Positions 1,502 to 32,000 of a stretch of DNA of 32,000 nt are shown here, piece by piece. The notes below the pieces were generated by a model. The model was not told the origin of the DNA, did no database searches, and saw only the letters and a list, made by a program, of their open reading frames with translations. How positions within the stretch are numbered: the stretch's first letter is position 1; each line of letters begins with the position of its first letter. The DNA lies in NCBI RefSeq assembly GCF_001581925.1, contig NZ_LQZA01000004.1:49764-81763 (forward strand). Direction: 5' to 3'. This DNA is from Ferrovum sp. PN-J185 (GTDB taxonomy: Bacteria > Pseudomonadota > Gammaproteobacteria > Burkholderiales > Ferrovaceae). A program made the translations under genes and the position numbers.

Positions 1502-1508
1502 CGCTCAC

Positions 1509-4895: not shown

Positions 4896-4896
4896 A

Positions 4897-8454: not shown

Positions 8455-8466
8455 AAAGCGTAAATT

Positions 8467-8500: not shown

Positions 8501-8576
8501 AACCAACAGTAATCTTAACCTTCAAATTCCACTATATATTTTCCCAAAATCATATTTTTAAATTTTTATTAATTCT

Positions 8577-9836
8577 ATGCATTTATCTGACCTAAAAACA
8601 CTTCACGTTACCGAATTAGTCGAAATGGCTATTAAAAATGAAATTGAAGGTGCCAATCGACTACGAAAACAAGAGTTAATATTTGCTTTATTAAAAAATC
8701 AAGCTAAAAAAGGCGAAAGTATATATGGAGAAGGTACCCTTGAAGTTCTCCAGGATGGTTTTGGTTTTCTCAGATCACCTGAAACCTCTTACTTGGCAAG
8801 CCCTGATGATATCTATATTTCGCCCTCACAAATCAGGCGTTTTAATTTACATACCGGCGATAGTATTCAAGGTGAAATTAGGATTCCTAAAGAAGGTGAG
8901 CGTTATTTTGCTTTAGTTAAAGTGGATGCAGTGAATGGTGAACCACCTGAACAAGCAAAAAACAAGATTCTTTTTGAAAACCTTACTCCACTGTTCCCAA
9001 CAGAACCACTTATATTAGAACGTGATATCAAAGCAGAAGAGAATTTCACTGGTCGCGTTATTGATATTGTTGCGCCAATTGGTAAGGGACAGCGTGGGTT
9101 ACTCGTTGCAAGCCCTAAAAGCGGCAAGACTGTTATGTTGCAACATATTGCACATTCTATTTCCTCAAATAATCCGGATGCACATCTAATCGTTTTATTA
9201 ATCGATGAACGTCCCGAAGAAGTAACTGAAATGCAACGTTCAGTTCGTGGTGAAGTGGTTTCTTCTACTTTTGATGAACCAGCCACACGTCATGTACAAG
9301 TAGCTGAAATGGTTATTGAAAAAGCAAAACGTTTAGTAGAACACAAACGAGACGTGGTTATTTTACTTGACTCTATCACTCGTTTAGCCAGAGCTTACAA
9401 TACCGTTATTCCCTCATCAGGTAAAGTGCTAACAGGCGGGGTTGATGCCAACGCCTTGCAACGTCCAAAACGTTTCTTTGGCGCAGCGCGCAATGTTGAA
9501 GAAGGTGGGTCACTGACCATCATTGCCACAGCGCTTGTAGATACTGGATCTCGTATGGATGATGTGATTTACGAGGAGTTTAAAGGCACGGGTAATATGG
9601 AGATTCATTTGGACAGAAGAATGGCCGAAAAACGAATCTATCCAGCTATTAACGTTAACCGCTCAGGTACACGCCGTGAAGAAATGTTACTCAAACAAGA
9701 GGTTCTTCAGAAAATCTGGGTTCTACGTAAGTTGCTTTATCCAATGGATGAGATTGAAGCATTGGAGTTTTTACTAGATAAAATTAAAGCTACAAAGAAC
9801 AATGCGGACTTTTTTGATTCTATGCGTAGAGGATAG
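8577..9836 (+). CDS. rho: Transcription termination factor Rho
   Basis: 419 aa. The N-terminus is MHLSDLK...EL. It has an RNA-binding domain (GFGFLRS), a Walker A (PKSGKT), [12 protein letters not shown] and the C-terminal part up to NMEIHLDR. Confidence 0.97.
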
Positions 9837-9933
9837 TTAAGTTCCAACATCCTTATTGCCATAAATAGCGTTTTAAGTCATAATATTGGGCTTAGTGTCG
9901 TATACCCCGACATATTGTTTAGGATAAAAGATT

Positions 9934-10140
9934 ATGAAACCCGAAATTCACCCAGAATATCAAGACGTAACTGTTACTTGTAGTTGCGGCAACTCATTTG
10001 TTACCAAATCAACACTTGGTAAACCAAACCTCTCTGTTGAGGTTTGCTCAGCTTGCCATCCTTTTTACACCGGTAAACAAAAAATTGTGGATACTGCAGG
10101 TCGTGTTGAGAAATTCCGCCAAAAATACGCTCGTAAGTAA
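9934..10140 (+). CDS. rpmE: 50S ribosomal protein L31 (zinc-binding type A)
   Basis: 68 aa starting MKPEIHPEY, with C16xC18...C37xxC40 and FYTGKQ. Confidence 0.95.
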
Positions 10141-10160
10141 TCATTTTATACAGCATAAAA

Positions 10161-10180
10161 AGGCAGCGATCGCGCTGCCT
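10161..10180 (+). terminator. Hairpin after rpmE
   Basis: aggcagcg-atcg-cgctgcct forms a perfect 8-bp GC-rich stem. The T-tail is only short. Confidence 0.55.
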
Positions 10181-10200
10181 TTAGTCTAACTGGAGATCAC

Positions 10201-11859: not shown

Positions 11860-11864
11860 CTACC

Positions 11865-14800
11865 ATGGAAAAAACTGCCTTGAGTCCAGAGTTTGATGGC
11901 TCATTGCCCATTCATGAACATCTAGAAGAGATTCAATCTCTTATATCAAGTCATCAAATACTAATTTTATGTGGTGAAACAGGATCAGGGAAAACCACTC
12001 AGATCCCTAAAATGTGTCTTAGTCTCGGTTTTGGACAAACCAAAATGATCGGTTGTACCCAACCCCGACGTCTGGCTGCACGATCGGTTGCACAACGCTT
12101 GGCCTTTGAATTAAAAACTGAAGTTGGTGTGGGAGTAGGCACCAAAATTCGTTTTCAGGACAGAGTAAACCCCAAGCTTACCTCAGTAAAAGTTATGACA
12201 GATGGTATTTTATTAGCAGAAATCCATCATGACCCCCTACTCAAAGCATACGATGTCATTATTATTGATGAGGCTCACGAGAGAAGTTTAAATATTGATT
12301 TTCTATTGGGCTATTTAAAAAATTTACTGCCCAGACGACAAGACTTAAAACTGATTATCACCTCAGCAACCATTGAAACAGAAAAATTTTCAGCGTTTTT
12401 TAATGGCGCTCCAATTGTTGAAGTGAGTGGCAGAAGTTATCCTGTGGATATACGATACCGTCCTCCTTTAATTGATGAAAATGATGAACAAGAAGACGAA
12501 GAAGAACGAGATACTAAAAGTCATCTTTTACATGTAATAGATGACTTAATGAAAGAAACCTATCAAGGAGATGTTCTGGTATTTCTTCCGGGCGAGAGAG
12601 ATATCAGAGATACCCTCGATTCGTTGAAAAGACAACAACCTCCTCATACAGAAATTGTTCCTTTATATGCTAGGTTATCTCAAGAGGAACAAGATAAAAT
12701 TTTTAAAACAACTGGCCAAAGAAGAATCGTTTTATCTACTAATGTTGCTGAAACCTCACTCACTGTCCCTGGAATTCGATATGTGATAGACGGTGGTTTA
12801 GTGAGAGTTAAACGCTTCAGCCAACGTAATAAAATCGATCAATTGCTCATAGAGAAAAACTCTCAAGCCTCAGCGCAACAACGGGCAGGACGTTCAGGAC
12901 GTATTGCCCCTGGTATCTGTGTTCGCCTTTACAGTGAGGAGGATTATCTCAGTCGACCCGCTTTCACTACTCCAGAATTATTGAGAAGTTCTCTGGCAGG
13001 GGTCATGCTAAAAATGGCTTATCTCGAGCTGGGTGAAATAGAACACTTTCCCTTCATCGACCCTCCCTCACCAAAAGCCATACAAAGTGGACGTATTGAA
13101 TTACTCGAGCTAGGTGCCATTGATCACCAATACCAACTAACAGCTTTAGGGAAACAAATTGCTAAAATTCCTATTGATCCGCATCTAGGACGTATTTTAA
13201 TTGCCGCACAAGATTATCATAGCGTCACGGAAGCTCTCATTATTACCTCTTTTTTGAGTATACAAGATCCACGTGAACGTCCCTTTGAATGGCGACAACA
13301 AGCTGATCAACAACATAAACTCTTTGCTGACCCTCAATCTGACTTTGTTACTATCATAAACATATGGCATGCCTACCTAAAAGAACAAGGAAAAAGTAGA
13401 AAACAACAAATACGTTGGTGTCACGAACATTTCTTAAACTACAAAAGAATGCGGGAGTGGCATGAATTACATCATCAAATCAAACAAACTGCTCAAGGTT
13501 TTCATATCATACCTAACGACAAAGAAGCCACCTATGAACAATTACATCGTGCATTGTTAAGTGGTTTAATTAGTCAAATTGGCTATTATCATACGGAGTT
13601 AGAGCACTATCAGGGTGTGAGAAGCTTAAAATTTAAAATAAGTAAAGGATCTACTTTAGCGTCGAAAAAACCAAAATGGATTATGGCAGCAGATATTCTT
13701 GATACAGGATTGTTACAAGCACGAATAGTAAGTCAAATTCAAAATCACTGGGTTGAGGAATATGCTAAGCAATTAATGCACTATACCCTGACTCCAGGTG
13801 AATGGGATCCTCAACAAGGTCAAGCTATAGCCTATGAAAATGGCTCTTTGTATGGTTTACAAATTATAAATAGAAGAAAGGTGTCACTATCACAACGTGA
13901 TCCTGAACAAGCACACACACTATTGCTTCGTCATCTGTGTGTACTACAAGAGTCTGAAAAAAACATACCTGACTTTATACGAGTTAATCATGAAACTATT
14001 GAAAATGTGGCTCTGATTGAACATAAAACACGACGCCAAGATGTACTTATCGATGAAGAGGCGATAGTAAATTTATATCGACAATATATTCCCTCTCACA
14101 TTACTAAAGCACAAGAGTTACAAAATTGGTATCAAAAGCGTTCATCACTAGAAAAACAACAGCTATTATTCACACCAGACCAATTAAAAAAACATAATAG
14201 TATTTCAACAACCATCGTTTTATATCCTGATACCTTAACTATAAACAATCATACCTACGATTTAACCTATCGATTTGAACCGGGACATTCTCTTGATGGA
14301 GTAACCATTACTGTCCCACTTCCCCTGTTAGTGACCTTACAGGAGAGTAACCTCGAGTGGCTTGTTCCTGGATTGATACGAGATAAAATTCAACAATTAA
14401 TTAAAGGCTTACCTCAGCAGATAAGACGTAACTTAGTTCCTGTTCCAAAATTCATCACAGAATTTTTAGATTGTTACTCAGAAAAAAATGGATCACTAAA
14501 AAACTGTTTAGAAGAATTTATTGCAAAGCGTTATCAACAAAAAATACAACCAGATAATTGGCCTAATACACTATCAGATCATTTATTAATGAATATCCGT
14601 GTGGTTGATGATTCTCTGCAAGAGATCGCTCAATCTAGGTCTCTAAGCACGTTAAAAGATAAGCTCAAGCAACGTCTAGAAAAAGAAAAACAACAACTTA
14701 GCCATCCGCTTTTACAATTAGCAGAAATCACACAATGGAACTTTGGAACCTTACCTGAGTACATTGATATTGTAAAACAAGAGATGACAGTTAGAGTGTT

Positions 14801-15587
14801 TCCTGCTCTCGTTAATGAGAACGATCATCTCTTTATTCGTGCTGTTGAAGATCCTACTGAAGCAAAAAATACAACGCAGCAAGGAATTGTAAGACTATTT
14901 GAAATTCAATTTAAATCTTGGTTAAATAACATTGATAAAAATTTCTCAAATAGTAAAGAAATGGGATTATTGTTATCGAAACTTGCACATCCTCCTGTTT
15001 CTCCTATTGAGGTATGGCTAAAAAAAGCATGGCTTCACCTTCTTCTAAGACACTGTTTAACTACTTTTAATACCACTATTAAAGATGAAGAAGCATTTAA
15101 TCAATTCTATCTCTTTACTAAATCAAACCTAACCACCTATCTTAATCAGTTAAATAATGTTCATCGAAAGATAATCGAACTGGCAAAACGTTATTACTCA
15201 CATACAGACAAGTTAAAAAAATCTTCTAATAATGTCTCATTAACAGATATAGCTACCCATTTTGAATCCTTAATGAATTGGTCAATGTGGACTAATCTGA
15301 CATTTGATGAACTAATGCTGGTACCACGCTATCTAGAGGGACTCATTATTCGTCTTGAAAGGTATAGTTTAGATACTCGGCAGGATTTAGAAAAATGTAA
15401 ACAGTCTCTGCCTTTTAAGAAAAGACTGACTGACCATATCTCAAAATATGGTCAATCCTCACATACTAAACAATTTGCTAAAATGTTAGAAGAATTTTAT
15501 ATTTCTTTATACGCTCAACCCATGAAAACCACATTTCCCATTTCGCTACAACGATTAGAGAAATATTGGACTGAGCATTTAAAATAA
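11865..15587 (+). CDS. hrpA: ATP-dependent RNA helicase HrpA (DEAH box)
   Basis: 1240 aa. Motifs present: GETGSGKTTQ, IIIDEAHERS, TSAT and QRAGRSGR. The long C-terminal extension is typical of HrpA. Confidence 0.92.
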   Translation: MEKTALSPEFDGSLPIHEHLEEIQSLISSHQILILCGETGSGKTTQIPKMCLSLGFGQTKMIGCTQPRRLAARSVAQRLAFELKTEVGVGVGTKIRFQDRVNPKLTSVKVMTDGILLAEIHHDPLLKAYDVIIIDEAHERSLNIDFLLGYLKNLLPRRQDLKLIITSATIETEKFSAFFNGAPIVEVSGRSYPVDIRYRPPLIDENDEQEDEEERDTKSHLLHVIDDLMKETYQGDVLVFLPGERDIRDTLDSLKRQQPPHTEIVPLYARLSQEEQDKIFKTTGQRRIVLSTNVAETSLTVPGIRYVIDGGLVRVKRFSQRNKIDQLLIEKNSQASAQQRAGRSGRIAPGICVRLYSEEDYLSRPAFTTPELLRSSLAGVMLKMAYLELGEIEHFPFIDPPSPKAIQSGRIELLELGAIDHQYQLTALGKQIAKIPIDPHLGRILIAAQDYHSVTEALIITSFLSIQDPRERPFEWRQQADQQHKLFADPQSDFVTIINIWHAYLKEQGKSRKQQIRWCHEHFLNYKRMREWHELHHQIKQTAQGFHIIPNDKEATYEQLHRALLSGLISQIGYYHTELEHYQGVRSLKFKISKGSTLASKKPKWIMAADILDTGLLQARIVSQIQNHWVEEYAKQLMHYTLTPGEWDPQQGQAIAYENGSLYGLQIINRRKVSLSQRDPEQAHTLLLRHLCVLQESEKNIPDFIRVNHETIENVALIEHKTRRQDVLIDEEAIVNLYRQYIPSHITKAQELQNWYQKRSSLEKQQLLFTPDQLKKHNSISTTIVLYPDTLTINNHTYDLTYRFEPGHSLDGVTITVPLPLLVTLQESNLEWLVPGLIRDKIQQLIKGLPQQIRRNLVPVPKFITEFLDCYSEKNGSLKNCLEEFIAKRYQQKIQPDNWPNTLSDHLLMNIRVVDDSLQEIAQSRSLSTLKDKLKQRLEKEKQQLSHPLLQLAEITQWNFGTLPEYIDIVKQEMTVRVFPALVNENDHLFIRAVEDPTEAKNTTQQGIVRLFEIQFKSWLNNIDKNFSNSKEMGLLLSKLAHPPVSPIEVWLKKAWLHLLLRHCLTTFNTTIKDEEAFNQFYLFTKSNLTTYLNQLNNVHRKIIELAKRYYSHTDKLKKSSNNVSLTDIATHFESLMNWSMWTNLTFDELMLVPRYLEGLIIRLERYSLDTRQDLEKCKQSLPFKKRLTDHISKYGQSSHTKQFAKMLEEFYISLYAQPMKTTFPISLQRLEKYWTEHLK

Positions 15588-15619
15588 TCATGCTACTATT
15601 TACGTTTTGAGGAGATTCT

Positions 15620-16063
15620 ATGAAAAAACTGCTGGTTTTTTTTATTGCTTTTTTTGCTTCTTTTTTCATAGCCCATAATAGTTTTTCAGGTTCTACGGAG
15701 AAAACCACAATGACACTAGACGGCTTAACAATGATTGATCATGTGATTGGGACAGGGGCCACTGCTAAAGCAGGACGAGAAGTCTCGGTTCACTATACTG
15801 GTTGGTTATATGATCCTAACGCAACGGATCATAAAGGCCAAAAATTTGATAGTTCAGTTGATCGTAACCAACCTTTTCAGTTTCCACTTGGTGCAGGACA
15901 AGTTATAAAAGGCTGGGATGAAGGCGTGGCTGGAATGAAGGTTGGGGGTAAGAGAACCTTAATTATTCCTCCTCATTTAGGGTATGGTAGCCGTGGTGCA
16001 GGTGGTGTTATTCCCCCTAATGCCAAACTTATTTTTGATGTGGAATTACTGGAAGTCAATTAA
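15620..16063 (+). CDS. Secreted FKBP-type peptidyl-prolyl cis-trans isomerase
   Basis: It has an N-terminal signal-like segment ([18 protein letters not shown]). The FKBP core is [45 protein letters not shown]. Confidence 0.9.
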
Positions 16064-16066
16064 TCA

Positions 16067-16939
16067 ATGATGAAAAACCACGTAATACATCCATTTTTTG
16101 ATAAAGAGACATGGACATTTTCTTACGTGGTTTATTCCCCTAATGATGCACATGCTTTAGTCATCGACTCGGTATTAAATTTTGATCAAAAATCTGGGCG
16201 GTTTCATACTCATTCAGCTGATGAAATCATTCATTTTGTTAAACAAAACAATCTTATTGTTGACTATATATTAGAAACCCATGCTCACGCAGACCATATC
16301 AGTGCAGGTTATTATTTAAAACAAGCACTGGGCGGGCAATTGGTTATTGGTAAGACTATTACAGGTGTTCAGTCTGTATTTAAAGACATTTTCAATCTTG
16401 GCAATGAATTTATACCTAATGGAAGCGACTTTGATATTCTGTTGAATGATAAAGATTGTATTCAATTTGGTGAATCCATCTGCGAAGCAATTACCGTCCC
16501 TGGTCATACCCCTGCATGTCTAGCTTATCGAATTGAAAACTGTCTTTTTGTTGGTGATACATTATTCATGCCTGATGTAGGAACAGCACGCTGTGACTTT
16601 CCTGGAGGAGATGCGAGCTCATTGTATTGGTCGATTCAAAAACTCTACTCTTATCCTGATGATACCTTAGTTTATCTTTGTCACGATTATCCACCTCAAG
16701 ATAGACAACATATTTCTTATCAGACCACCATCAAGGAACAAAAAGAAAAAAATATTCATGTTCATACTGGGGTAACAGAAGAACAATTTGTCGAGCTTAG
16801 ATCAAATAGAGATAAAACATTAACTTTACCTAACTTAATTATCCCATCTATACAAATAAATATTCGCGCAGGGAAGTATCCCACTCCTGAAAGTAATGGT
16901 GTAAGTTACTTAAAAACACCTATAAATTACTTTATCTAA
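16067..16939 (+). CDS. MBL-fold metallo-hydrolase (glyoxalase II / persulfide dioxygenase-like)
   Basis: HxHxDH motif (THAHADH), plus PGHTP, GDTLF and CHDY. Confidence 0.8.
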   Translation: MMKNHVIHPFFDKETWTFSYVVYSPNDAHALVIDSVLNFDQKSGRFHTHSADEIIHFVKQNNLIVDYILETHAHADHISAGYYLKQALGGQLVIGKTITGVQSVFKDIFNLGNEFIPNGSDFDILLNDKDCIQFGESICEAITVPGHTPACLAYRIENCLFVGDTLFMPDVGTARCDFPGGDASSLYWSIQKLYSYPDDTLVYLCHDYPPQDRQHISYQTTIKEQKEKNIHVHTGVTEEQFVELRSNRDKTLTLPNLIIPSIQINIRAGKYPTPESNGVSYLKTPINYFI

Positions 16940-17105
16940 TAAATCCATTCATCAACCAAAGAGATAAATAGTGTCCTGTAATATTTAGTTAAGGTCGTGC
17001 TGTTAGCGGATGTTCCTAGTGACTATAAGTAGTGATACTCTACTTAGACAAAAGAATATTGATCCGTATTTGCGAAAGGCTTGGAGAGCTAATGAACTAT
17101 TCATC

Positions 17106-17372: not shown

Positions 17373-17582
17373 TTAGTTAAAAACGTAATCGCCAACAGTA
17401 GACTCTTGATCGGCAATTAAAATTTCCCGAATCAAAGAAAAAGGTAAGTCTGGATTTTCTTGGGCAATTTTGCCAATCTGAGACCAATACTCAATTTGTT
17501 TGGGCACTGAGCGATGCTCAATACTTCCAATCATTTTGGCTTGCTCAACTAGCTTTTCTGACAGTTTCACGTTAATAGACAT
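17373..17582 (-). CDS. ParD-like / ribbon-helix-helix type II antitoxin
   Basis: 69 aa (MSINVKLSEKLVEQAKMIGSIEHRSVPKQIEYWSQIGK...). It sits directly upstream of the RelE/ParE-like frame, overlapping it in TAATG. Confidence 0.6.
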   Translation of the reverse strand: MSINVKLSEKLVEQAKMIGSIEHRSVPKQIEYWSQIGKIAQENPDLPFSLIREILIADQESTVGDYVFN

Positions 17583-17638: not shown

Positions 17639-17780
17639 ATATTAAAAGACTGCTTGACTACTATAAGGCAGCCAATTGCTGTTTTTGAGCCTACTTCTTG
17701 CTCTGATTGGGATTACCCGAATTTGACTAGCATTCCAGAAATTATTAACTATGGGTATTTTGATTGATAAATGCTTAAAG

Positions 17781-17810
17781 AAAAAGCCTCTAACAAAAAA
17801 TGTTAGAGGC
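17781..17810 (-). terminator. Rho-independent terminator directly 3' of the tRNA fragment
   Basis: gcctctaaca (17786-17795) pairs with tgttagaggc (17801-17810), with a 5-nt loop. On the minus strand a T5 run follows. Confidence 0.75.
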
Positions 17811-17818
17811 TTTTATGT

Positions 17819-17863
17819 TGGTGGGCCCACCAGGACTTGAACCTGGGACCAAAGGATTATGAG
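17819..17863 (-). tRNA. 3' fragment of a tRNA(CAU) gene (Met or Ile2 type), from the anticodon loop to CCA. This is a probable att direct repeat, not a functional gene.
   Basis: The minus strand reads CTCATAA-TCCTT-TGGTC-CCAGG-TTCAAGT-CCTGG-TGGGCCC-A-CCA: anticodon loop, 3' anticodon stem, variable loop, a perfect T-arm, the 3' acceptor strand, discriminator and CCA. The bases 5' of the loop (CTGCT) cannot pair with TCCTT, and there is no D-arm or 5' acceptor strand. Confidence 0.8.
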
Positions 17864-17949
17864 AGCAGAAGCCCATGATAGACCCCCACAAACAGGGGAT
17901 CTGCGGGTGGTCAGTGTCGGTGTGTAAGCAAATGTGTAGTGAGCAAGCT

Positions 17950-20103: not shown

Positions 20104-20973
20104 ATGGCAAATCGACAAAAATTACCTCGTTTTAAGGATCAAGGCAGTAGTTGGGAGAGCGCCGGCTTATACGCAGCTATTGATTGGCGCTATGACGCCT
20201 TGGTTGATTACTTAAAACTTAGTCCCAGCTACAAGCTGGTGTCTGAATGGACTAAAAGGGGGCAAAAAACCCTGCCCACCAATTCGCCTCGGGATTGGAG
20301 CAAGCTCACTAAGACTTATGAGGATTTTGGGGATGTTTGGCGCATACCGGAGAGTCGTTGGTGGGATAGTCGCGGACGAGAACTCTTTGGCATTAAAGCA
20401 GCAAAGACACAAAGCTTTACCGTGGGCAAATCTGACGATAAGAATCTTATGAGTGGCAATATTATTTCTAACTCACAAAAGCTCTGGGAGGATATGGCTC
20501 AGCCAGAATGTCTCATCGTTGCTATTCCCACTAATCAAACCAAACAGATGGTACTAAGGCAAATTAATGCAATCATAAGAAGTAATACTTTTATTACGTC
20601 AAAACCCAAGCTTGTAAAACCGAAATACGAGCTGGTACGATCAAAACTGCGTGAACCCACCATTAAGCTAGGCACCATTGCATTAAAGATGTATCAAGTA
20701 GGCAAACCACTTTGGGCCATAGGAAATGAGCTAGGTTTATCGCCAGCTCATGCAATTCAAATTGATAAAAATGGTAAACCTATTTCTAATGAGCTTAATT
20801 TGCCAGAAAAAAAGATGCGCTTACAAGTACTCGCTAGCAAATTAATTGCAAAAGCAGAACTTATTGCTGAAAATGCTGCTCGCGGACGCTTTCCCACAGA
20901 TGCCCCTTGTACATTTGCTATCAAGTTTGAATCAAAGACCCGTAAAGTAGGCAGACCCAGCAAAGTTAAATGA
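20104..20973 (+). CDS. Hypothetical protein, 289 aa, with a possible HTH and an AT-hook-like tail
   Basis: It is a long ORF with an HTH-like segment (KPLWAIGNELGLSPAHAIQ) and a C-terminus RKVGRPSKVK. It is convergent with the recombinase gene, overlapping it by 8 nt. Confidence 0.5.
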   Translation: MANRQKLPRFKDQGSSWESAGLYAAIDWRYDALVDYLKLSPSYKLVSEWTKRGQKTLPTNSPRDWSKLTKTYEDFGDVWRIPESRWWDSRGRELFGIKAAKTQSFTVGKSDDKNLMSGNIISNSQKLWEDMAQPECLIVAIPTNQTKQMVLRQINAIIRSNTFITSKPKLVKPKYELVRSKLREPTIKLGTIALKMYQVGKPLWAIGNELGLSPAHAIQIDKNGKPISNELNLPEKKMRLQVLASKLIAKAELIAENAARGRFPTDAPCTFAIKFESKTRKVGRPSKVK

Positions 20974-21604
20974 GTTCTACTGCCATGCGCTTCATATCGT
21001 CATTCACATCAATGTAAGCCTGCGTAGTACTGATATTGCGATGACCCGCTAGACTCATGAGCACCCTAACTCCGATGCCTTTACTTGCAAGGTTAGTAAT
21101 AAAGCTTCTACGCCCGCTGTGACTAGTAGCACCAGATATACCAGAAGCTTTGTAGATACTTTTAAAGTGTTGCGTCAGCGTATTGGCTGTAAAGCCTCGC
21201 TTTGGGTGCTTTTGCGTGGGGAAGAAGGCATGGTTGCGGTCTTTATTGGTGATCTCATTGGCAAACGCTTGTAGCTCTGCTTTTAAGCGCTCATTGAGAA
21301 AGACTGTCCTTGGGTGGCGTCCCTTGGTTTGCTCCGGCAATAAGCGGATCTCACTTTTCACCTGGTTTTCAGGGTCTAAAACATCGCATATACGTAGGGC
21401 TGCTACTTCCCCTACTCTGAGCCCACCCCAATGGGTTAATAGCAACATAGCACGGTTACGTACGCTGTGTTTGGTGGTTTTTACATATGTCAAAACTTGG
21501 GTTAGCTCTGTACTACTAAACGATTTTGCTTGTGGCATATAGCTGTCCTTTAATTGTAATAAATACGCAGCTACAGTATGTTTTCTGATGTTTGGTTTGG
21601 ACAA
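20966..21604 (-). CDS. Short tyrosine recombinase (phage-integrase catalytic fold, FimB/FimE-like size)
   Basis: 212 aa with a TTG start. The catalytic residues are in the canonical order: GLRVGEVAAL (Arg), HSGRRSF (H-x-x-R), AGHRNISTTQAYIDV (His, Tyr). It lacks the long N-terminal arm-binding domain of typical island integrases. Confidence 0.8.
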   Translation of the reverse strand: MSKPNIRKHTVAAYLLQLKDSYMPQAKSFSSTELTQVLTYVKTTKHSVRNRAMLLLTHWGGLRVGEVAALRICDVLDPENQVKSEIRLLPEQTKGRHPRTVFLNERLKAELQAFANEITNKDRNHAFFPTQKHPKRGFTANTLTQHFKSIYKASGISGATSHSGRRSFITNLASKGIGVRVLMSLAGHRNISTTQAYIDVNDDMKRMAVELI

Positions 21605-22751: not shown

Positions 22752-23138
22752 GTGTAAGCTTCTTGCTCGTGATCCATAAAACTAGGTTTTATGATCTTTG
22801 TGCTAATTTATATACTTGATTCATATTAGTCAGCAAGGCTAATGGCGTCCTGTAAAGGATAGTGAATTAAGTCTCTGCTACCGCCCAGAATTTCCGTCTC
22901 CGTGATCAACAATGTCCAGTTTTCGGGTGACATAACGACTAGGTGTCACAGCCCTTGTTTCGGTAGTAATAAGTAATGGCATACAAAACGTTCTTTTGTT
23001 TTGTCGTCATAGTTATTTAGCAAACCACACAAATTCCTGCTTAATTCTGGATTCTTTTGGTTGCCTATTTTCAGGTTGCTCAACCCCTATTTCTGATCAT
23101 ATTGTTATATGTGCCCATTCACTATTAAGGAGCCATAC

Positions 23139-23576
23139 ATGAGCACACTAGAAACACTGAAATTCGTCAGCGTTACTAAACCCACTAAATTACCCGCTGT
23201 TGTCCAGAGACGTAATAAGCTATCCGATAAGCTGTGGGAACAGATCCAATTAGCTGAAGCTAAAAGCGCTGGCACAAGCTATGCCCCATTAAAAACCAAA
23301 CGATTAAAAGATATTGAAGGCAATATCAAAATCTTAGAAGTGCCAAAACGTATCAAGCCTTGGTGGTTTACTGCCCAAAATGGCAAGTCCTGCCTTGTTG
23401 TCAGGTACGGATCCAAAACGCTAGAAATATCACAAGGTAAATCGACTATTGAGCTAGATAAGCCCGATGAGCTTATACATATATTAGAGATGATTAAAAC
23501 GGCTGTAGAAGCTGGCGAGCTAGATGCACAAATAGAGCGGGCAGCTGGACTGCTTAAAGAAGGGTTTGCCAAATGA
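23139..23576 (+). CDS. Hypothetical protein, 145 aa
   Basis: An AAGGAG Shine-Dalgarno sits 7 nt before the ATG at 23139, so I prefer that start to the track start at 23109. I recognise no family. Confidence 0.55.
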   Translation: MSTLETLKFVSVTKPTKLPAVVQRRNKLSDKLWEQIQLAEAKSAGTSYAPLKTKRLKDIEGNIKILEVPKRIKPWWFTAQNGKSCLVVRYGSKTLEISQGKSTIELDKPDELIHILEMIKTAVEAGELDAQIERAAGLLKEGFAK

Positions 23577-24084: not shown

Positions 24085-24501
24085 CTACCAACTAATTCCA
24101 TCATCCTGAAATGGCTCAGGAATTATTAAATCCGCCATTACTGTCCCTGCAGTTATAGCTTTGGGTACATGCAAATCATTTAAATCATAAAATGCATTTA
24201 GTAACCTAAAGCAATCAATAACCGAATGACGAGTTGATATAGACTCAATTTCTAGATTACTTATATTTGAGGTGCCTGAATATATTTCAGAGTGAATGCC
24301 ATATATCCACTTGTCTACGAGTGCAGCATTGCTGCCTGCCAGCATTGCAAGTGTCCTGATAGAAAAAAAATTGCTAGCACCCTTTAAAATTTCTGCAGCA
24401 AGATAGTCATTACCCTCAAGTAAAGCTTCTTCACTGGCTTTAGCTGCCCATGCAAGTACTTTTTGATCGTCCCTTTTATCCCAATTCCAACTTCTACTCA
24501 T
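24085..24501 (-). CDS. Hypothetical protein, 138 aa, translationally coupled to the 3' end of zorD
   Basis: Its ATG overlaps the zorD stop by 4 nt (24498-24501). It is the last gene of the operon. I recognise no motif. Confidence 0.6.
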   Translation of the reverse strand: MSRSWNWDKRDDQKVLAWAAKASEEALLEGNDYLAAEILKGASNFFSIRTLAMLAGSNAALVDKWIYGIHSEIYSGTSNISNLEIESISTRHSVIDCFRLLNAFYDLNDLHVPKAITAGTVMADLIIPEPFQDDGISW

Positions 24502-27500
24502 ACATTGGCCGAAAATTTAGATGTGTTCATATAAAACTTAAAAATTTCCTCATCTAAAGCAAGCTGCTTAAGCTTTACTTTGTTCAACAATTCAATCAAC
24601 TCAGCCCTTCCAATCAGCTTTACCCCTAAAGTATTAGCTTGTTGAATAGCTGTAGAGTTGAATTTTTGATTGGTGATTGCAACCTTTTGAAACATTACGC
24701 CCGGATGTCGTGCTTGATAAGCCGGACTACCAGCAGCAACCTCTTTAACCGCATCCCAACCCAGCTCATCTTGCATACTATATTTGCACTGACAAATCAT
24801 TCCTTTGCCATCATTACCAATAACAACGATATCGATGCCACCGTCGCCTCTTTGCTTCTGGGTAATGTAGGCTTTATTTGGATAAGCGCCAAATAAAAGC
24901 TGACAAAATACTTCAAACGTAGCTCCATCCAAAGTATCCACACGGCTTATATCAACTAACTTATCCGCGTCAACTTGAATACCGCCAGGTCCACTATCAG
25001 GCATCAATGTTCCGGTTGGGATATCAGAGCCCACTCCATCTAACATATCTCCAGCAAGATCCATCTTTAAAGTCATCAATCGATCTAACTTGGCGTCAAA
25101 GGTCACAAAGTCTTCAGCTGTAATAGTTGGGCAATAAACATATACATCCTTGGTCTGCCCAATGCGATATGCCCTATCTGTTGCTTGACCCTCTTTAGCC
25201 GGATTCCACGTTCTCGTGAAATGAATAACATGATTAGCTGAAACTATGTTTACTCCAAAGCCAACGGCTAATGGCGAGAGAATGATTACGCCAAAACCTT
25301 CGCGTGATTGGAACGCATCAATTAAATCCTGTCGATCATCAATATCTCCATTAATAATCTGCGCGGAAAAATCAAAGCGCTTACGAATAAACATAACCAA
25401 TGATCTTTGAATTTCCTTAATATCTGTGAATATGATTACTTTTTCTTGCTTTTGCGCGATTAATTCCAGGGTACTCAATAGCCACTTTAGTTTTGGGGCA
25501 TTGTTTAAATGGGCGTCTATTCCGTTTACATCAATAGTAAACGTTGTCTTTGGCAGACAATATGGCTCAGAACACAAGGCTCTTACAAAATGTAAAACTG
25601 CAAAAGAAACATTCGACCTTCTTTTTGCATCCTTTTCTTGGGCTGCTGCAGCGATTTGTCGTAATCCCTGCGCATATAAATTTCTCTGATGATTTGAAAT
25701 AGGCACAGATAACCTTTTTCTAAGGGCTCCATCAAACTCATATTCATCATTTGAAACCAGTATCTTCTGAGGCAACTCATCAGCAATATCGCTCTTCATC
25801 CTTCTTAATATCTGAGGGCTAACTATTGCACGCAGATGTTCAATTACTTCTGCTGCCTTTTCATCACCAGCTTCCTTCGCTTCAATGGGCTTTCTATATG
25901 TTCTACCAAATTCGTCTAATGCCCCGAGCAAACCGGGCTGTATAAAGTCAAACAAGCACCACAAATCTGCCAAACTATTTTCTACAGGCGTTCCTGTACA
26001 TGCAATTCTAAATTTAGCTTTCTGCTTCTTAGCTGCTGTTGTAGATTGCGCATTAGGTGTTTTAATTTTTTGAGCTTCATCACAAATCATGAAGGTAAAT
26101 TCTTGTCTGGCTAAACTAAATTCATAATCTCGAACAGTTTCATATGTGGTCAAAACTACCTTAGCAGAACCCAACCAATTTGGTGTTAATAAATTAACGA
26201 TTTTTTTATCTAATAATGACTGGTCAATAAATTGCTTAGGCTGTCTTCTAGCGCTCAATCCTTCAGCATGGAGCAATAAAATCTCTGGAAAATTATTAAA
26301 AAAGTTCCTAGCTTCATTCTTCCAGTTTTGCATTAATACCGGGGGAGCAACAATTAATGATGGTGGCGCCTCAGGATTGCGTTCATAAAACCAAGAAAGC
26401 AATGATAGAAGTTGTAATGTCTTCCCAAGACCCATGTCGTCAGCCAACAATGCACCTCGACAATATTCTGGAGCCTTTGAATACAAGTACTGCATCCAAG
26501 CTAATCCATCTAACTGATGTTTTTTTAACTTAATTTCACTCTTCAGATCAGTAGGCAATTGAGGCGAAAAGCCTTCGGGCACCTTAAGTATTGCCGCACG
26601 CATTTCCTCTGCCGCAGTTTCGCTATAGTCAAGCTGTGTAATATTGACTTTCACCAAGAGTGTTTCTTTGCGCCCCTTTCCGGGCGGGTTTGGACTTGGC
26701 GGAGTTGGGCCAGGTGGTGTCGGCCCTGGAGGAGTTGGGCCAGGTGGTGTCGGCCCTGGAGGAGTTGGGCCAGGTGGTGTCGGCCCTGGAGGAGTTGGCC
26801 CCGGAGGAGTTGGGTCAGGTGGCAGAGGGTCACCCCCTGAACCAATAATTCCAAGTAAAACCTTTAGATCTTTTACCAAATCAATAGCTTCAGGTATTGA
26901 AAGAGGAATTGGTAATCGGGGATCGGCAACTTTGTCGACACCTGCTGCCTTTGCCTGCTCAATCTTGGCCTCAAATTCCGTTACCCATATTTCATCAACA
27001 GCTATAAAAACAGGCGCTGAGCCTGGAGTTAATGAAACACCGAGAAGCGGTGGCGCCCAAGAGGAGTCATCTCCACCCTCTTTTTTTATGTAAGCTGAGT
27101 AGATGGGTTTTGCAACTCCAATACCATCAATTCGCCCACCATAATTATCGAGAGCATAAATGTCGTTAAAGTCTATGAAATTTTTTACCTGATCTTTCCA
27201 AACATTGAACCAAGCCTTAGCACTATCCAATGTCTGATAAAGATCACCATCAACATCAATTACAAAATTACGCCAAGTAAAAAATTGACGCTCTTCCGAG
27301 AGAGCCGATTCAATTTCTTGTATTAACAAGTTAAGCTCATGGGCAGTTGAAATAATTGATCTATCGGCCTTCGCCATTCCATCTTCAAGATTTTGATAAA
27401 CGCTTGCTGTTACGCTTTCAATGGCACCCTTTGAAATATCTGGAAATAGTGATATTCGAGTAGAAAAGATTCCAGCCTCTTCTTTGGCTTCTTGTATCTG

Positions 27501-28493
27501 ATTCTCATCCAATACTTTGGAGGCAGCCTCACCAAGATAAGCGAAAGGATTTCTAAGAAAGGCTTCAGCCTTACTACCAGCAACTTTGCGCCCATCAAAT
27601 TGTGTTTTGATAACCGTTAGAACATCTCGTATCGCCTCAGGAAAAATGACCCTTGTTCTGCCTGTAGCCGTTGGAAAATCACTGTGTTCAGGAATGAATT
27701 TGAATGAATCAAATTGCCCCATCCAATCATCAGGTGCCCCATCAAAATATGGTTCAATTGTGACAACACTGGTTCCCAGAGCTTGCGCTCTGATGTAACG
27801 CATCTTTAGCAAGCTTGGAACTAAAACAATGGTTGCAGCCAAATAAGGTGAAAGCTCTGCCTTTGCTAACAAGGCGAATTTGCGAGCCTCACCCCACAAT
27901 ATTTCATTTTCAGATTGAGAGCGTGACTGGGCTTCAAATCCATGATTGCGACTAATAAAGTCTATTAATTGCCAAGAATCCTTTGATTGAAGTGAGTAAG
28001 TAGACCCATCAACAAAAGCACCTCCAAGCCACTTTCTAACTCTAATGCTACGGCCTGAAACCTCTCGCCAACCATCAATTCTTAACCTAAAGAACTTATC
28101 TGCAACTGTTCCATCTTCCCCAAGAATTGGGATTGAATGATCAATCTTTGGAAGCGACAGCAGATATAGAGAATCTTCATGTTCAGCATCTTCGAATAAA
28201 GCGTAAAGATCAGACCAAGGAATAGCTATCTCGGAATTATTGAATGCTGCCACGCCATCGGACACTAGCTGAGCAAGGTAAATTAACTGCTGACTACCAG
28301 AAACAGGATCGGTTGCAATATCCATTAACTGACTCGAGGCACTTAACCCGATATTAACGTCAATAAGGTAAGAGATCCTATCGTTAGAAAATGCAGGTTG
28401 AATTAACTTTTGGGAAGATGGATTATTACCCATTTCCTCGAAAACATTTTTAACTTCGGGACGTGATTTAAAAAGCCTGCTAAGAAAATTCAT
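24498..28493 (-). CDS. zorD: ZorD-like SNF2-family helicase fused to a C-terminal Mrr-type PD-(D/E)xK nuclease, 1331 aa
   Basis: SNF2 motifs are present: LADDMGLGKT (res 683-692), DEAQ (res 805-808, DNA 26070-26081), ACTGTPVEN and QATDRAYRIGQ. The C-terminal nuclease-like block is GDGGIDIVV...ICQCKY (res about 1216-1238). It sits after zorC with a TGATG stop-start overlap. Confidence 0.85.
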   Translation of the reverse strand: MNFLSRLFKSRPEVKNVFEEMGNNPSSQKLIQPAFSNDRISYLIDVNIGLSASSQLMDIATDPVSGSQQLIYLAQLVSDGVAAFNNSEIAIPWSDLYALFEDAEHEDSLYLLSLPKIDHSIPILGEDGTVADKFFRLRIDGWREVSGRSIRVRKWLGGAFVDGSTYSLQSKDSWQLIDFISRNHGFEAQSRSQSENEILWGEARKFALLAKAELSPYLAATIVLVPSLLKMRYIRAQALGTSVVTIEPYFDGAPDDWMGQFDSFKFIPEHSDFPTATGRTRVIFPEAIRDVLTVIKTQFDGRKVAGSKAEAFLRNPFAYLGEAASKVLDENQIQEAKEEAGIFSTRISLFPDISKGAIESVTASVYQNLEDGMAKADRSIISTAHELNLLIQEIESALSEERQFFTWRNFVIDVDGDLYQTLDSAKAWFNVWKDQVKNFIDFNDIYALDNYGGRIDGIGVAKPIYSAYIKKEGGDDSSWAPPLLGVSLTPGSAPVFIAVDEIWVTEFEAKIEQAKAAGVDKVADPRLPIPLSIPEAIDLVKDLKVLLGIIGSGGDPLPPDPTPPGPTPPGPTPPGPTPPGPTPPGPTPPGPTPPGPTPPSPNPPGKGRKETLLVKVNITQLDYSETAAEEMRAAILKVPEGFSPQLPTDLKSEIKLKKHQLDGLAWMQYLYSKAPEYCRGALLADDMGLGKTLQLLSLLSWFYERNPEAPPSLIVAPPVLMQNWKNEARNFFNNFPEILLLHAEGLSARRQPKQFIDQSLLDKKIVNLLTPNWLGSAKVVLTTYETVRDYEFSLARQEFTFMICDEAQKIKTPNAQSTTAAKKQKAKFRIACTGTPVENSLADLWCLFDFIQPGLLGALDEFGRTYRKPIEAKEAGDEKAAEVIEHLRAIVSPQILRRMKSDIADELPQKILVSNDEYEFDGALRKRLSVPISNHQRNLYAQGLRQIAAAAQEKDAKRRSNVSFAVLHFVRALCSEPYCLPKTTFTIDVNGIDAHLNNAPKLKWLLSTLELIAQKQEKVIIFTDIKEIQRSLVMFIRKRFDFSAQIINGDIDDRQDLIDAFQSREGFGVIILSPLAVGFGVNIVSANHVIHFTRTWNPAKEGQATDRAYRIGQTKDVYVYCPTITAEDFVTFDAKLDRLMTLKMDLAGDMLDGVGSDIPTGTLMPDSGPGGIQVDADKLVDISRVDTLDGATFEVFCQLLFGAYPNKAYITQKQRGDGGIDIVVIGNDGKGMICQCKYSMQDELGWDAVKEVAAGSPAYQARHPGVMFQKVAITNQKFNSTAIQQANTLGVKLIGRAELIELLNKVKLKQLALDEEIFKFYMNTSKFSANV
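26676..26831. repeat. GC-rich in-frame tandem repeat encoding the (PTPPG)n linker of ZorD
   Basis: There are three perfect 30-bp units, ggagttgggccaggtggtgtcggccctgga, at 26701-26730, 26731-26760 and 26761-26790. Degenerate copies lie on both sides. The protein reads DPTPPG(PTPPG)x7 PTPPSPNPPG, residues about 555-606. Confidence 0.9.
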
Positions 28494-29974
28494 CAGAAAT
28501 ATTTGTCAATTGAAAATGTGGTTGTTCCTGAACCCACTTTACCAGCTCGGACATCATCAAAGATGCCAAATGCAGGCAATTGATAGGTTCTAGCTTTATA
28601 TTGCCATCCCTCTCTATGAACTATGTCAGGACCTTTGGCGCTACCAGTGTAATAACGCTCTTTTAAGCCTCTTTGGCTAGTTGAGGCATCAAGACTAACG
28701 GCATTTACATTAAATGTGTTTTCCCCTTTTTGATAGATGTAGCATCCACCATGGGGATTAAATTCAACAATTAAATGTCCGCTAATTTCCATAATGAATG
28801 CATCTAGCGAAGACTCGCCTTTCGCCCCCATTAGATTGGCATATGACTCGACATCATTTTTAAAGTGCTCTTTTAACTCTGGATGTGCCGTCAAATATCT
28901 GCGCATATCCTCGCCCAATACAAGTCGAGTAAAGGTTATTTGATTTATATATTGCATCCAAAAATCAACTCTTCCATGTAGATCTGGAACACCACGGCGC
29001 TTAAGTAACTCAAAGAACAGCCTTAGATTGGCCTCTTGTACCCAAGTTAAAACCATTCGCCAAGTTGGCTCTGACACGTGAATCCATTTGGAAGCTCCTG
29101 TATTTCGTAGCTTGGGACTCTTCCATGTTTCTAGGGCAAATTCTTTGAGCTCCCTGTGAACCCGTATATCTGAGGAAGCCCGATATCTATCCAATAAGGC
29201 ACGCAGTCCATTATCTAAATAGGATGGATGCCTTTTAAGTAGGGCAATAATAAGTGGGATAGATTCTTTAAACTTAGCATCTGATTGAGATAACGAAGCC
29301 TTTAAGCATGACTTAAAAAATTCCTCCCAAAACCAACTTGTATCCGGAATATGCAACTCCTGCTTAATTTGCTTAACCCGAACCTCACTTCCGGCAAGCC
29401 ACTCAGCGCCATAAACCTCGCATGGTGACTCACCAAGCAAATGCTGATTTGCCTCAATACTTTTCATCCAATTAGTTGAGAAAGCTGCATTCTTTTTTAC
29501 ATCTGGCCAAGTTTTAACTAGGAAGCTCCTTATAGCTCGCTGGGAGCTAAAGAAACTATCCCCTTGGTAATTCAGCTTTTGCGCCTGAAAATAAGATTGA
29601 AAAACGCCGAACCAAAATATTCCATCAATCTCATCACTTTCAAACTCTTTTGCATAACGATCCAAAAGAGACCTTAGCTTTTCAGAAGCTGAGGCAACAG
29701 ATATGCCGCCTAATTCAGAAATGGGTTTTGTTAAAACAAATGAGATGATTTCATACTCGCCAACATCACCATTTAACGAGCCATCAAGAAAGTTACGTGC
29801 TGCAGCATAAGCAACTTCATCTTTTGGTTTCAAGATGAAAGTAAATTCATCAGTTATTTTTTTATGGATTTTAGAAAGCTTGGGATAACTCTCCCCACGA
29901 TCACTCTTCAATTCATATTGAAAAGTACTATTTAAATCAGCAAGTGAATTTTTTAATAGGTCTGTGAAGGACAT
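28493..29974 (-). CDS. zorC: ZorC-like protein (candidate EH-signature family), 493 aa
   Basis: The call rests on position (between MotB-like zorB and SNF2 zorD), overlapping junctions with both neighbours, and a size close to known ZorC. I cannot confirm the EH-signature domain itself by eye. Confidence 0.6.
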   Translation of the reverse strand: MSFTDLLKNSLADLNSTFQYELKSDRGESYPKLSKIHKKITDEFTFILKPKDEVAYAAARNFLDGSLNGDVGEYEIISFVLTKPISELGGISVASASEKLRSLLDRYAKEFESDEIDGIFWFGVFQSYFQAQKLNYQGDSFFSSQRAIRSFLVKTWPDVKKNAAFSTNWMKSIEANQHLLGESPCEVYGAEWLAGSEVRVKQIKQELHIPDTSWFWEEFFKSCLKASLSQSDAKFKESIPLIIALLKRHPSYLDNGLRALLDRYRASSDIRVHRELKEFALETWKSPKLRNTGASKWIHVSEPTWRMVLTWVQEANLRLFFELLKRRGVPDLHGRVDFWMQYINQITFTRLVLGEDMRRYLTAHPELKEHFKNDVESYANLMGAKGESSLDAFIMEISGHLIVEFNPHGGCYIYQKGENTFNVNAVSLDASTSQRGLKERYYTGSAKGPDIVHREGWQYKARTYQLPAFGIFDDVRAGKVGSGTTTFSIDKYF

Positions 29975-30702
29975 ACGCCAAAATCTTTTCCAGATAAATC
30001 AATCGTAGATTCCTCTTGCCTCTTTTTATCGTCACCCAACTGCCAGAATTCAAGCTTTAACTCAGCCCGCCGACTTTCTTCATCGCTTCTTTTCTGCGAG
30101 TTAAATGAAAAGCCGCCGACAAGAAAAAGGCTTTTAACTTGATTTTTATCATCTAGCGATAATCCGCCAGTTCCATCAGGATCGGTTTTGGCGAGTTCGC
30201 AAATAACCTCTTTACTGCGCTTTAACGACAGGTCTAAGTTAGTCATATAGTTACCAGTTTTACTGGTATACCCCTCAACTATCACCCTTCTGAAAAACTG
30301 CTTACATTCATTATTCTTAACTGTTTTAAGTACTGTTGGGATATAGTCCCTTAAGAACTTTGAGGCTTCTGAACTAATTCCGTGCTTGCCATCATCAAAT
30401 TTAACGATTGACCCCAAATCAATCCGTATTGCATCTCCCTTGCTATATTCAATACGAGCCTGACCAGGAAAGCGTTGGTTTGCAATTCCTTGAAGATCTT
30501 TTGCGCAAGCTGAAATCGTTGCCTCTCTGGCTGCTTCGGCAGCATATTGATTTTCATACTTCTTTTTCAACATCACAATTGTTACCGCCATAACTACTAG
30601 AAAAAGTGTCATGCATGCAGTCATTAGATCTGAATAGGAAATCCAAAAGGGCTTCTCACCTTCATCCTTGTACGACTTCTTGGAAGATCTTTGGTTAAAC
30701 AT
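29953..30702 (-). CDS. zorB: ZorB: MotB-like stator subunit with an OmpA-like peptidoglycan-binding domain
   Basis: It has a single N-terminal TM segment preceded by the MotB-type motif FWISYSDLMTACMTLFLVV (conserved Asp at residue 25). The C-terminal OmpA-like block is VEGYTSKTGNYMTNLDLSLKRSKEV. A 1-nt stop-start overlap links it to zorA. Confidence 0.8.
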   Translation of the reverse strand: MFNQRSSKKSYKDEGEKPFWISYSDLMTACMTLFLVVMAVTIVMLKKKYENQYAAEAAREATISACAKDLQGIANQRFPGQARIEYSKGDAIRIDLGSIVKFDDGKHGISSEASKFLRDYIPTVLKTVKNNECKQFFRRVIVEGYTSKTGNYMTNLDLSLKRSKEVICELAKTDPDGTGGLSLDDKNQVKSLFLVGGFSFNSQKRSDEESRRAELKLEFWQLGDDKKRQEESTIDLSGKDFGVCPSQTY

Positions 30703-32000
30703 TATTCAGACTTTTTAAGCTTGGCGACTGACATCAGCATTGACTGAACTGCACCCTCTAAGGCGCTTAAGGAGCCCGTTAACAAAGTATCAGACGACAC
30801 TTTGAGCGCCTCGACCTGGGCTACCATTTCCTGCCCAAACTGCTGGAATGATCCCTTGAGTACCGAATTAACTTGATTTAAATAGTCAGTACTTTGCTTT
30901 TCAGCAGTTTGCAATGAACCTAAAATTCTCTCCAGATCTGAAAGCATTTGCGTGCTTAATCCAGCTTCTTTTTTTGCGTTTTCCACAAGAGCTTGAAGCT
31001 GGAGCACGTAACCCTGAACAGATTCCCGAGACTCATCATATTTCTCGAATGCAGTTCTTACCGATGCAGAAGCCATTTGAAGCGTAGAGGCTGTTTGCTC
31101 TAATTGATCAGTTACCACACGACTCTTATCAAATACACCTCCGATACTATCGCCAGCCTTAGTGAATCGATCTGCTGCATCACGCATCACAAGAGCTCCG
31201 TCATTCATTCCGGATATTGCAACGGTGGCAGCATTTTGAATGGCTTTAATATTTTCCTCGGTCTTAAAAGCAGCATCCTTCACATCGCCCATTAACTGAA
31301 CAACGTTATCAGTTAAGCCGCTATAGAGACCTTCTGTTTCTGCCACTAAGCGCTCTGCCCGGGCCTTATCTGCTACAGCCTGATTCTCTCTTTCTGCAGA
31401 AATTACGGAGATTGATTTCTCAAGCTCAGATAAGATTTTTTGCATAGTCTCATCCATTGCCTGCTTCGTTTGATTTTGCTGCTCAAGGATTAACTTACGC
31501 AACTCCTCAACAAAACTGCGCAACTGTTGGTTCATCTGCTCTTGTGCAAGAGCAGCCTTAGACATTGACTCCTCCATCTTCGCAGACATTTCAGATGTGG
31601 CTTTTTGACCAGCGCCTGAGATATCCGTAATCAAACGAGTCATTGCCTCTTGAACCATAGTCATAGAGTCAGATGACTTCTGAATTGCTGTATTGATATT
31701 CTGAATTTGAGATCCAAAGGTCTCATCAATTTTTGCCATAAATGCGCTCAGTAAATTCTCCAGCATGCCTGTTACAGCACCACCCTGCTCACCCGATGCT
31801 CTAGCAACGACCTCCATCAGATCCTTCATCGGAGCATCTAGACTCTCTTTAATAGCACCCGATACCTGTGATGAGAAGTTTTGTGCTGACTGAAGCTGAG
31901 CATTGATTTGTTTATCTGCTACCTCATGCATTAACTGCTTTAAATCATCAATTAATGCATCCTTAAGGCTTGCTGTATTGGCTGAGCTTTTCTCAGAGGC
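30702..32000 (-). CDS. zorA: ZorA, C-terminal coiled-coil tail only; the N-terminal MotA-like part lies outside the window
   Basis: The reading frame stays open past the track ATG at 31931 up to the window edge (...ASEKSSANTASLKDALIDDLKQL-MHEV...). The visible 432 codons are Q/E/A/S-rich and heptad-like, resembling an MCP signalling domain, with no TM segment. It lies directly upstream of zorB. Confidence 0.7.
   Translation of the reverse strand, partial: ASEKSSANTASLKDALIDDLKQLMHEVADKQINAQLQSAQNFSSQVSGAIKESLDAPMKDLMEVVARASGEQGGAVTGMLENLLSAFMAKIDETFGSQIQNINTAIQKSSDSMTMVQEAMTRLITDISGAGQKATSEMSAKMEESMSKAALAQEQMNQQLRSFVEELRKLILEQQNQTKQAMDETMQKILSELEKSISVISAERENQAVADKARAERLVAETEGLYSGLTDNVVQLMGDVKDAAFKTEENIKAIQNAATVAISGMNDGALVMRDAADRFTKAGDSIGGVFDKSRVVTDQLEQTASTLQMASASVRTAFEKYDESRESVQGYVLQLQALVENAKKEAGLSTQMLSDLERILGSLQTAEKQSTDYLNQVNSVLKGSFQQFGQEMVAQVEALKVSSDTLLTGSLSALEGAVQSMLMSVAKLKKSE

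Follow-up and report, generated by a model that had tools for sequence, protein, structure and literature searches.

A probable type I Zorya anti-phage operon with a short ZorC and a fifth gene on a genomic island of Ferrovum sp. PN-J185

Described Zorya systems and the Ferrovum locus

In its original definition (Doron et al. 2018; also PADLOC and DefenseFinder), type I Zorya comprises four genes, with ZorD variants bearing an Mrr-like nuclease included, and the occurrence of such a nuclease on some ZorD proteins has already been noted (PMC11890865; also the PADLOC descriptions). The system taken here as a model is EcZorI of Escherichia coli NCTC 9026, with solved structures of ZorAB (PDB 8qyd), ZorC (8r68) and ZorD (8qy7) (Hu et al., Nature 2025, PMC11946911), in which deletion of the C-terminal globular domain of ZorC abolishes both defence and DNA binding by ZorC (PMC11946911). 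The present analysis concerns positions 24085–32000 of a stretch of 32,000 nucleotides (nt) from Ferrovum sp. PN-J185 (contig NZ_LQZA01000004.1, positions 49,764 to 81,763), referred to as the window. Judging from its sequence, this segment very probably belongs to a complete type I Zorya anti-phage operon located on an integrase-bearing genomic island.

The Ferrovum operon shares with EcZorI the zorA-zorB-zorC-zorD order, a ZorA made of a membrane domain and a long helical tail, a ZorB with a plug, the motor aspartate (D25 for D26) and a peptidoglycan-binding domain, a ZorC EH core with the D/R/W/E network, and a ZorD in which an N-terminal domain accompanies an SNF2 domain with a DEAQ box, the identity being roughly 30–45% in the aligned parts. 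However, ZorA is of 653 amino acids (aa) against 729 in EcZorI, its tail being shorter, and ZorC is of 493 aa against 560, without the C-terminal globular domain. Conversely, ZorD reaches 1331 aa against 1080, with a (PxPPG)n linker of about 50 aa and an added Mrr_cat domain, and a fifth gene, orf5, is found that EcZorI does not have. The original prediction had announced several departures from canonical Zorya, and four were found, namely in the ZorC C-terminus, the ZorD linker, the ZorD Mrr domain and orf5.

The same five-gene architecture, with the same protein lengths, is present in Polynucleobacter sp. MWH-P3-07-1 (CP061296; locus L002) and in the metagenomic loci L010 and L011, whose ZorA tails are 97–99% and ZorC proteins 93–99% identical to those of the window. 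These loci also share the downstream island (the DUF6641 gene, a short integrase, a 289-aa gene and an attR-like transfer RNA (tRNA) fragment), and differ from the window in linker copy number and in the orf5 allele, which is 43–60% identical. The Ferrovum operon is a member of a freshwater betaproteobacterial subclade characterized by a short ZorC, a polyproline-type ZorD linker, the Mrr domain and orf5. In the Zorya literature searched, no fifth Zorya component is described and the five-gene type I subclade appears undescribed; the system is of a known kind with an ordinary core, and the five-gene form of the subclade is modestly new.

Operon organization and identity of ZorA and ZorB

An open reading frame (ORF) scan of the window revealed the zorA tail, zorB, zorC, zorD and orf5 as five consecutive minus-strand ORFs, with zorA to zorD co-directional and in the canonical type I order, as seen from their coordinates and overlapping junctions. 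The zorA tail (30702 to beyond 32000) consists of the C-terminal 432 codons, encoding the cytoplasmic coiled-coil tail, and joins zorB (29953–30702; 249 aa) through a TAATG sequence, read directly, that produces a 1-nt overlap at 30702. Downstream, zorB and zorC (28493–29974; 493 aa) overlap by 22 nt (29953–29974), zorC and zorD (24498–28493; 1331 aa) meet in a TGATG at 28493, and zorD and orf5 (24085–24501; 138 aa, isoelectric point 4.7) share the 4-nt overlap ATGA at 24498–24501. All the ORFs and junctions originally predicted were found at their coordinates. Identical junctions and protein lengths were seen again in independent genomes and metagenomes, which indicates that the arrangement is conserved rather than fortuitous. 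Additionally, purifying selection acts on zorA to zorD, with ratios of nonsynonymous to synonymous divergence (omega) of 0.01–0.17.

The type I identity that had been proposed for the operon was borne out at the level of each protein, since the type I model was the best match for all four in PADLOC (ZorA1, 5e-126; ZorB1, 3e-86; ZorC1, 3e-101; ZorD1, E=0). Among solved structures, the best matches were likewise the Zorya chains of E. coli, which could be aligned to the four proteins. Among the Pfam domain models proposed for checking the operon, MotB_plug, EH_Signature, SNF2-rel_dom, Helicase_C and Mrr_cat were matched, with OmpA remaining below its cut-off.

The long coiled-coil protein open to the window edge corresponds to the tail of ZorA. 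Its frame is open across 433 codons up to the edge, and it covers positions 232–662 of the 663 of the PADLOC ZorA1 profile (PDLC00598), a profile start that implies about 231 ZorA residues past the edge. The full Ferrovum ZorA (P0077), named "anti-phage ZorAB system protein ZorA" at NCBI, is 653 aa long and its residues 222–653 are 100% identical to the 432 aa of the window, zorA extending about 221 codons beyond it. Residues 32–252 of this protein align with the membrane domain of E. coli ZorA (8qyd_A, residues 40–265; E=3e-43), and the NCBIfam model antiphage_ZorA_3 scores above its cut-off. The Pfam family PF01618 gave a marginal match (E=0.064) on the N-terminus of the Polynucleobacter ZorA, a 97% identical homologue; therefore, the check in the exact form suggested with the original prediction would have looked negative. 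The expected MotA/ExbB-type membrane domain was thus recovered by direct homology to E. coli ZorA and not through PF01618.

ZorB is a stator subunit of the MotB type, in which a plug and the transmembrane Asp25 are accompanied by a peptidoglycan-binding domain. It aligns over residues 6–231 with E. coli ZorB (8qyd_F; E=1e-41), and the SYSDLMT motif that had singled it out as a MotB/OmpA-like protein is present, with Asp25 aligned to Asp26 of E. coli ZorB. In Pfam, MotB_plug was matched at 26.9 bits (cut-off 24), and OmpA reached 22.7 bits, under the cut-off of 27.2.

ZorC without its C-terminal domain

The 493-aa protein, taken for ZorC from its place in the operon, did yield the EH-signature match: PF15611 was recognized at 9.7e-37 and 127.7 bits, against a cut-off of 27.5. 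The PADLOC ZorC1 profile was covered from position 39 to 481 of 575, and the similarity to E. coli ZorC (8r68_A) was of E=5e-32. Residues D331, R335, W339 and E404 align to the E. coli EH network (D332, R335, W339 and E400), and H453 is invariant in the family alignment. The protein is, nevertheless, restricted to the EH-signature core, as it stops at residue 493, about 12 residues past the end of the core. The long ZorC proteins (544–600 aa) comprise an extra linker and a C-terminal domain with a conserved GPxAxxLKxLGF...GWW motif, and their last 50–100 residues have no counterpart in the ZorC of the window. A hidden Markov model (HMM) of this C-terminal domain searched against the six-frame translation of the window retrieved nothing, the best hit being of E=0.05 in an unrelated place.

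ZorD linker and Mrr-type nuclease domain

In ZorD, an N-terminal domain and a proline-rich linker precede the SNF2 ATPase, and an Mrr-type nuclease domain forms the C-terminus. In agreement with its description as an SNF2 helicase with a nuclease, all three domain models were matched (SNF2-rel_dom, 8.5e-52; Helicase_C, 4e-13; Mrr_cat, 1.5e-9 at residues 1186–1303), and E. coli ZorD (8qy7_A) was aligned at E=2e-196. The characteristic motifs are found at residues 690 (GKT) and 805 (DEAQ) for the SNF2 part, and at 1216 (GDGGID) and 1235 (QCK) for the Mrr part. The protein runs about 180 residues past the end of EcZorD, and it is this extension that carries the intact Mrr-type, PD-(D/Q)xK nuclease domain.

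Between the N-terminal and SNF2 domains, a (PTPPG)x8 linker begins at residue 561, encoded by a 15-nt tandem repeat at 26697–26813 (minus strand), for which Tandem Repeats Finder reported periods of 15 and 30. The orf5-bearing relatives have linkers of 6–10 copies or with PNPPG/SNPPG variants, and the more distant operons L006, L007 and L008 lack the repeat.

The proline-repeat DNA of zorD also gives rise to long spurious ORFs, at 26559–27093 on the plus strand and 26651–26854 on the minus strand, with GVGPG-type and LLQGRHHLAQ-type repeats, which are repeat artefacts and not genes.

The fifth gene, orf5

The clade-specific orf5, a small gene whose translation would be coupled to that of zorD, was found immediately 3′ of zorD in 14/14 loci, namely the window, L001–L004 and L010–L018, counting only those with sequence upstream of the orf5 homologue. 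The genes that follow orf5 vary from locus to locus (an MmeI-type restriction-modification gene, a NERD helicase, an RNase_T-like gene or DUF6641), and this constancy on one side with diversity on the other indicates that orf5 travels with this Zorya clade. An exhaustive HMMER search retrieved 7 family members among 1.84 billion representative proteins, all of 46–151 aa and none of them a fusion, and no homologues were found in phage, plasmid and viral-contig collections.

The acidic product of orf5 is predicted to be a four-helix protein by AlphaFold2 (AF2), with a predicted local distance difference test (pLDDT) of 79.6 and a predicted template modelling score (pTM) of 0.75. It ends in a conserved extended motif, DLIIPEPyxDDGI, and the family variation is concentrated in the inter-helix loops. 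That orf5 is truly coding is supported by its omega of 0.13–0.39, by 28 invariant columns among 17 homologues and by the confident helical model. No match to orf5 was obtained in Pfam, PADLOC or NCBIfam, nor with its profile among all PDB sequences, full-length EcZorC included, and a Foldseek comparison of the model with PDB and BFVD gave nothing better than E~1.

It was considered whether orf5 could be the detached C-terminal domain of ZorC, originated by gene fission. This was rejected, since both the search with the orf5 profile in PDB and that with the C-terminal domain HMM in the window were empty; moreover, orf5 is all-helical and the C-terminal motif of ZorC looks alpha/beta. The idea of a strict compensation of the short ZorC by orf5 also lost strength, since in L006 a short ZorC occurs without orf5.

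The divergence of orf5 follows a course of its own. Across loci, ZorA to ZorD are 72–99% identical and orf5 38–62%, and the same is seen at closer range in the metagenomic loci L010 and L011, where ZorA to ZorD are 98–99% identical to those of the window and the orf5 protein 43%. From 32000 down to 24466, L010 and the window share 96.7% nucleotide identity, which falls off along the Mrr-coding end of zorD and disappears below 24466, about 36 nt into orf5. In the comparison with L010, synonymous divergence (dS) is of 0.02–0.17 for zorA to zorD, whereas it reaches 3.7 for orf5, a contrast that reflects replacement of the orf5 allele by recombination and not fast evolution in situ. On this comparative evidence, orf5 behaves as an exchangeable cassette swapped between operons.

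A mosaic divergence was also observed between the window and the Polynucleobacter locus L002 at 30201–30600 and 28001–28400. These segments, which correspond to the periplasmic region of ZorB and to the first ~150 codons of zorD (N-terminus), have 65–76% nucleotide identity, with neighbouring segments at 84–99%, and suggest intragenic recombination or local diversification between Ferrovum and Polynucleobacter.

Alternative explanations

The type I assignment was weighed against a different MotAB-associated system, that is, Zorya of type II or III or a stator paralogue with no part in defence. Weak secondary matches to the PADLOC profiles ZorA2, ZorA3, ZorB2 and ZorB3, together with the non-significant PF01618 match to the ZorA N-terminus, would fit such a system; however, the type I profiles are ahead of those of types II and III by tens to hundreds of orders of magnitude, and ZorC with its EH signature and ZorD with its SNF2 domain stand in canonical order, with no ZorE-, ZorF- or ZorG-like partner. 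This outcome, contemplated in the original prediction in case the 493-aa protein gave no EH-signature match, is effectively ruled out. A decaying or non-functional type I Zorya, whose ZorC would have lost the domain essential in E. coli, is very unlikely. The effect of the domain deletion in EcZorI (PMC11946911), the end of ZorC so shortly after the core and the absence of the missing domain from the whole window speak in its favour, whereas the short form of 491–495 aa is kept across more than 35 protein clusters (41–100% identity) under strong purifying selection (omega of 0.05–0.15 for zorC), and the catalytic and EH-network residues are all intact. In addition, PADLOC already holds short ZorC1 profiles of 432–465 positions, which means that the short ZorC is unusual in relation to the E. 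coli model system and not in relation to the family.

With regard to orf5, it is somewhat unlikely that the gene is foreign to Zorya, being a passenger at the edge of a variable flank or the first gene of a neighbouring cargo. Such a status would account for the recombination breakpoint of L010 at the start of orf5, beyond which all further downstream sequence is also unrelated, and for the uncoupling of orf5 divergence from that of every Zorya protein; it would also agree with the Mrr-bearing ZorD proteins of L006 and L007, which occur without orf5, and with the lack of a functional annotation for orf5 in Pfam, PADLOC and NCBIfam. On the other hand, the position of orf5 right after zorD, with a 4-nt, 1-nt or near-zero gap, is invariable in the 14 loci despite the different genes that follow, none of its seven representatives was seen in another context, and the mobile-element and virus collections contained none.

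Some observations count against the interpretation of the locus as a type I Zorya operon that works as EcZorI does, with orf5 as one of its parts. The equivalog models of NCBIfam for ZorB1, ZorC and ZorD are the best matches and yet remain under their strict cut-offs, and a ZorC devoid of the domain essential in EcZorI means that the E. coli mechanism cannot be transferred unchanged. The divergence of orf5 shows no positive correlation with that of any Zorya part in the six loci compared (Spearman −0.19 to −0.42), so that co-variation of orf5 with the Mrr domain or another part was rejected. Furthermore, L006, with a short ZorC and an Mrr-bearing ZorD, has no ORF at all in the 468 nt after zorD, and the role of orf5 is purely inferred, the protein having no homologue of known function.

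Proposed mechanism and role of orf5

Taking the mechanism of EcZorI as a model (PMC11946911; PMC11890865), ZorA and ZorB would, by homology, assemble into a ZorA5B2 complex, a proton- or ion-driven rotary motor of 5:2 stoichiometry in the inner membrane. When a phage perturbs the envelope, the peptidoglycan-binding domain of ZorB would anchor to the wall, ZorA would rotate together with its long tail, and ZorC and ZorD would in this way be recruited and activated. ZorC would bind DNA through its EH core, ZorD would act as an SNF2 motor nuclease, and the incoming phage DNA would be destroyed.

Within this scheme, orf5 is proposed, with moderate confidence, to have an accessory or regulatory function as a partner of ZorD in the effector arm. 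Its docking on ZorD would rely on the conserved helices and the DLIIPEP tail, and recombination would exchange its variable loops from one operon to another. A bolder and unlikely version, put forward tentatively, is that the five-gene operons make up a separate subtype of type I Zorya, in which orf5 is a genuine fifth subunit. If so, it could be a small acidic four-helix adaptor bound to the polyproline linker or to the Mrr domain of ZorD by means of its conserved aromatic-rich helices and the DLIIPEP motif; its hypervariable loops, shuffled by recombination among operons that are otherwise nearly identical, might set the phage cue or the phage-encoded anti-Zorya inhibitor to which the effector arm answers, and the gene might represent a swappable specificity or decoy module that offsets the lost C-terminal domain of ZorC.

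Taken simply as a type I Zorya, the locus is ordinary; its value lies in the comparison. Judging from its sequences, a well-conserved natural clade appears to operate with a ZorC devoid of the C-terminal domain, a part that the E. coli model cannot do without, and this clade has in addition acquired a fifth protein, an Mrr nuclease and a long linker of the polyproline type. The way in which ZorAB activates ZorC and ZorD is the central question in Zorya research, and a variant whose effector arm is rewired and whose small partner can be exchanged would offer a concrete handle on it. The Zorya-bearing integrative island also appears to have been recently transferred between Ferrovum and Polynucleobacter-like freshwater bacteria.

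The genomic island and its flanking sequence

The first part of the window (1–16939) consists of core genes, which encode a pyruvate dehydrogenase E1, a superoxide dismutase, an AddAB-like pair, a ferredoxin, a thioredoxin, Rho, HrpA, an FKBP and a metallo-β-lactamase-fold protein. The accessory part carries a GNAT gene, a short tyrosine recombinase, the DUF6641 gene and several ORFs of unknown function, and is syntenic with the Polynucleobacter locus; the seven neighbouring accessory ORFs gave no PADLOC matches to other defence systems. The recombinase gene (20966–21604, minus strand; 212 aa from a TTG start) encodes only the catalytic Phage_integrase domain (3.8e-27 in Pfam), and syntenic versions of 188–190 aa are found in L002 and L010, which indicates a conserved short form rather than a local truncation.

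The island had been predicted to be linked to a tRNA. No tRNA gene was detected in the window by ARAGORN and none at the gathering score by Rfam; a tRNA-like 3′ fragment at 17822–17885 (minus strand) reached a sub-threshold 22.4 bits in Rfam against a gathering score of 29. This fragment lies in a 120-nt element (17822–17938, minus strand), of which the last ~48 nt (17822 to about 17870) correspond to the 3′ part of a tRNA, with a CTCATAA loop, a T-arm, an acceptor strand and a terminal ACCA. The element is 95% identical to positions 16885–17004 of the Polynucleobacter locus L002, the homology ends exactly after the CCA, and a terminator-like hairpin follows at 17780–17819. It probably represents the attR of a tRNA-integrated island shared with Polynucleobacter, in which case the intact tRNA gene, if existing, would lie beyond 32000. 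The integrase and the tRNA 3′ fragment with its CCA are present and the intact tRNA gene is missing from the window, so that a tRNA-linked island is plausible and only partly shown.

Some further elements were observed around the operon. In at least six loci (the window, L002, L010, L015, L016 and L018), a DUF6641 gene (23109–23576, plus strand, in the window) lies 1–2 kb downstream of orf5 in the opposite orientation, and it may either belong to the island backbone or represent one more conserved companion of this Zorya clade. Between this gene and a 224-aa ORF of unknown function, a full-length Polynucleobacter-1 RNA motif (Rfam RF01718) was identified on the island at 22814–22954 on the minus strand (81.6 bits, the gathering score being 37; E=5e-16), and it was not found in L002, L003, L004, L007 or L010. 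A segment of about 95 nt after the last core gene (16990–17086) is 74–78% identical to L002 10425–10518 and L004 9502–9590, which lie directly downstream of orf5 in those loci, and it may be a remnant of the RNase_T-like 218-aa gene found next to orf5 there. Finally, a 69-aa ORF (17373–17582, minus strand) located between the core genes and the attR-like element may be antitoxin-like, and the short ORFs beside it look degenerate.

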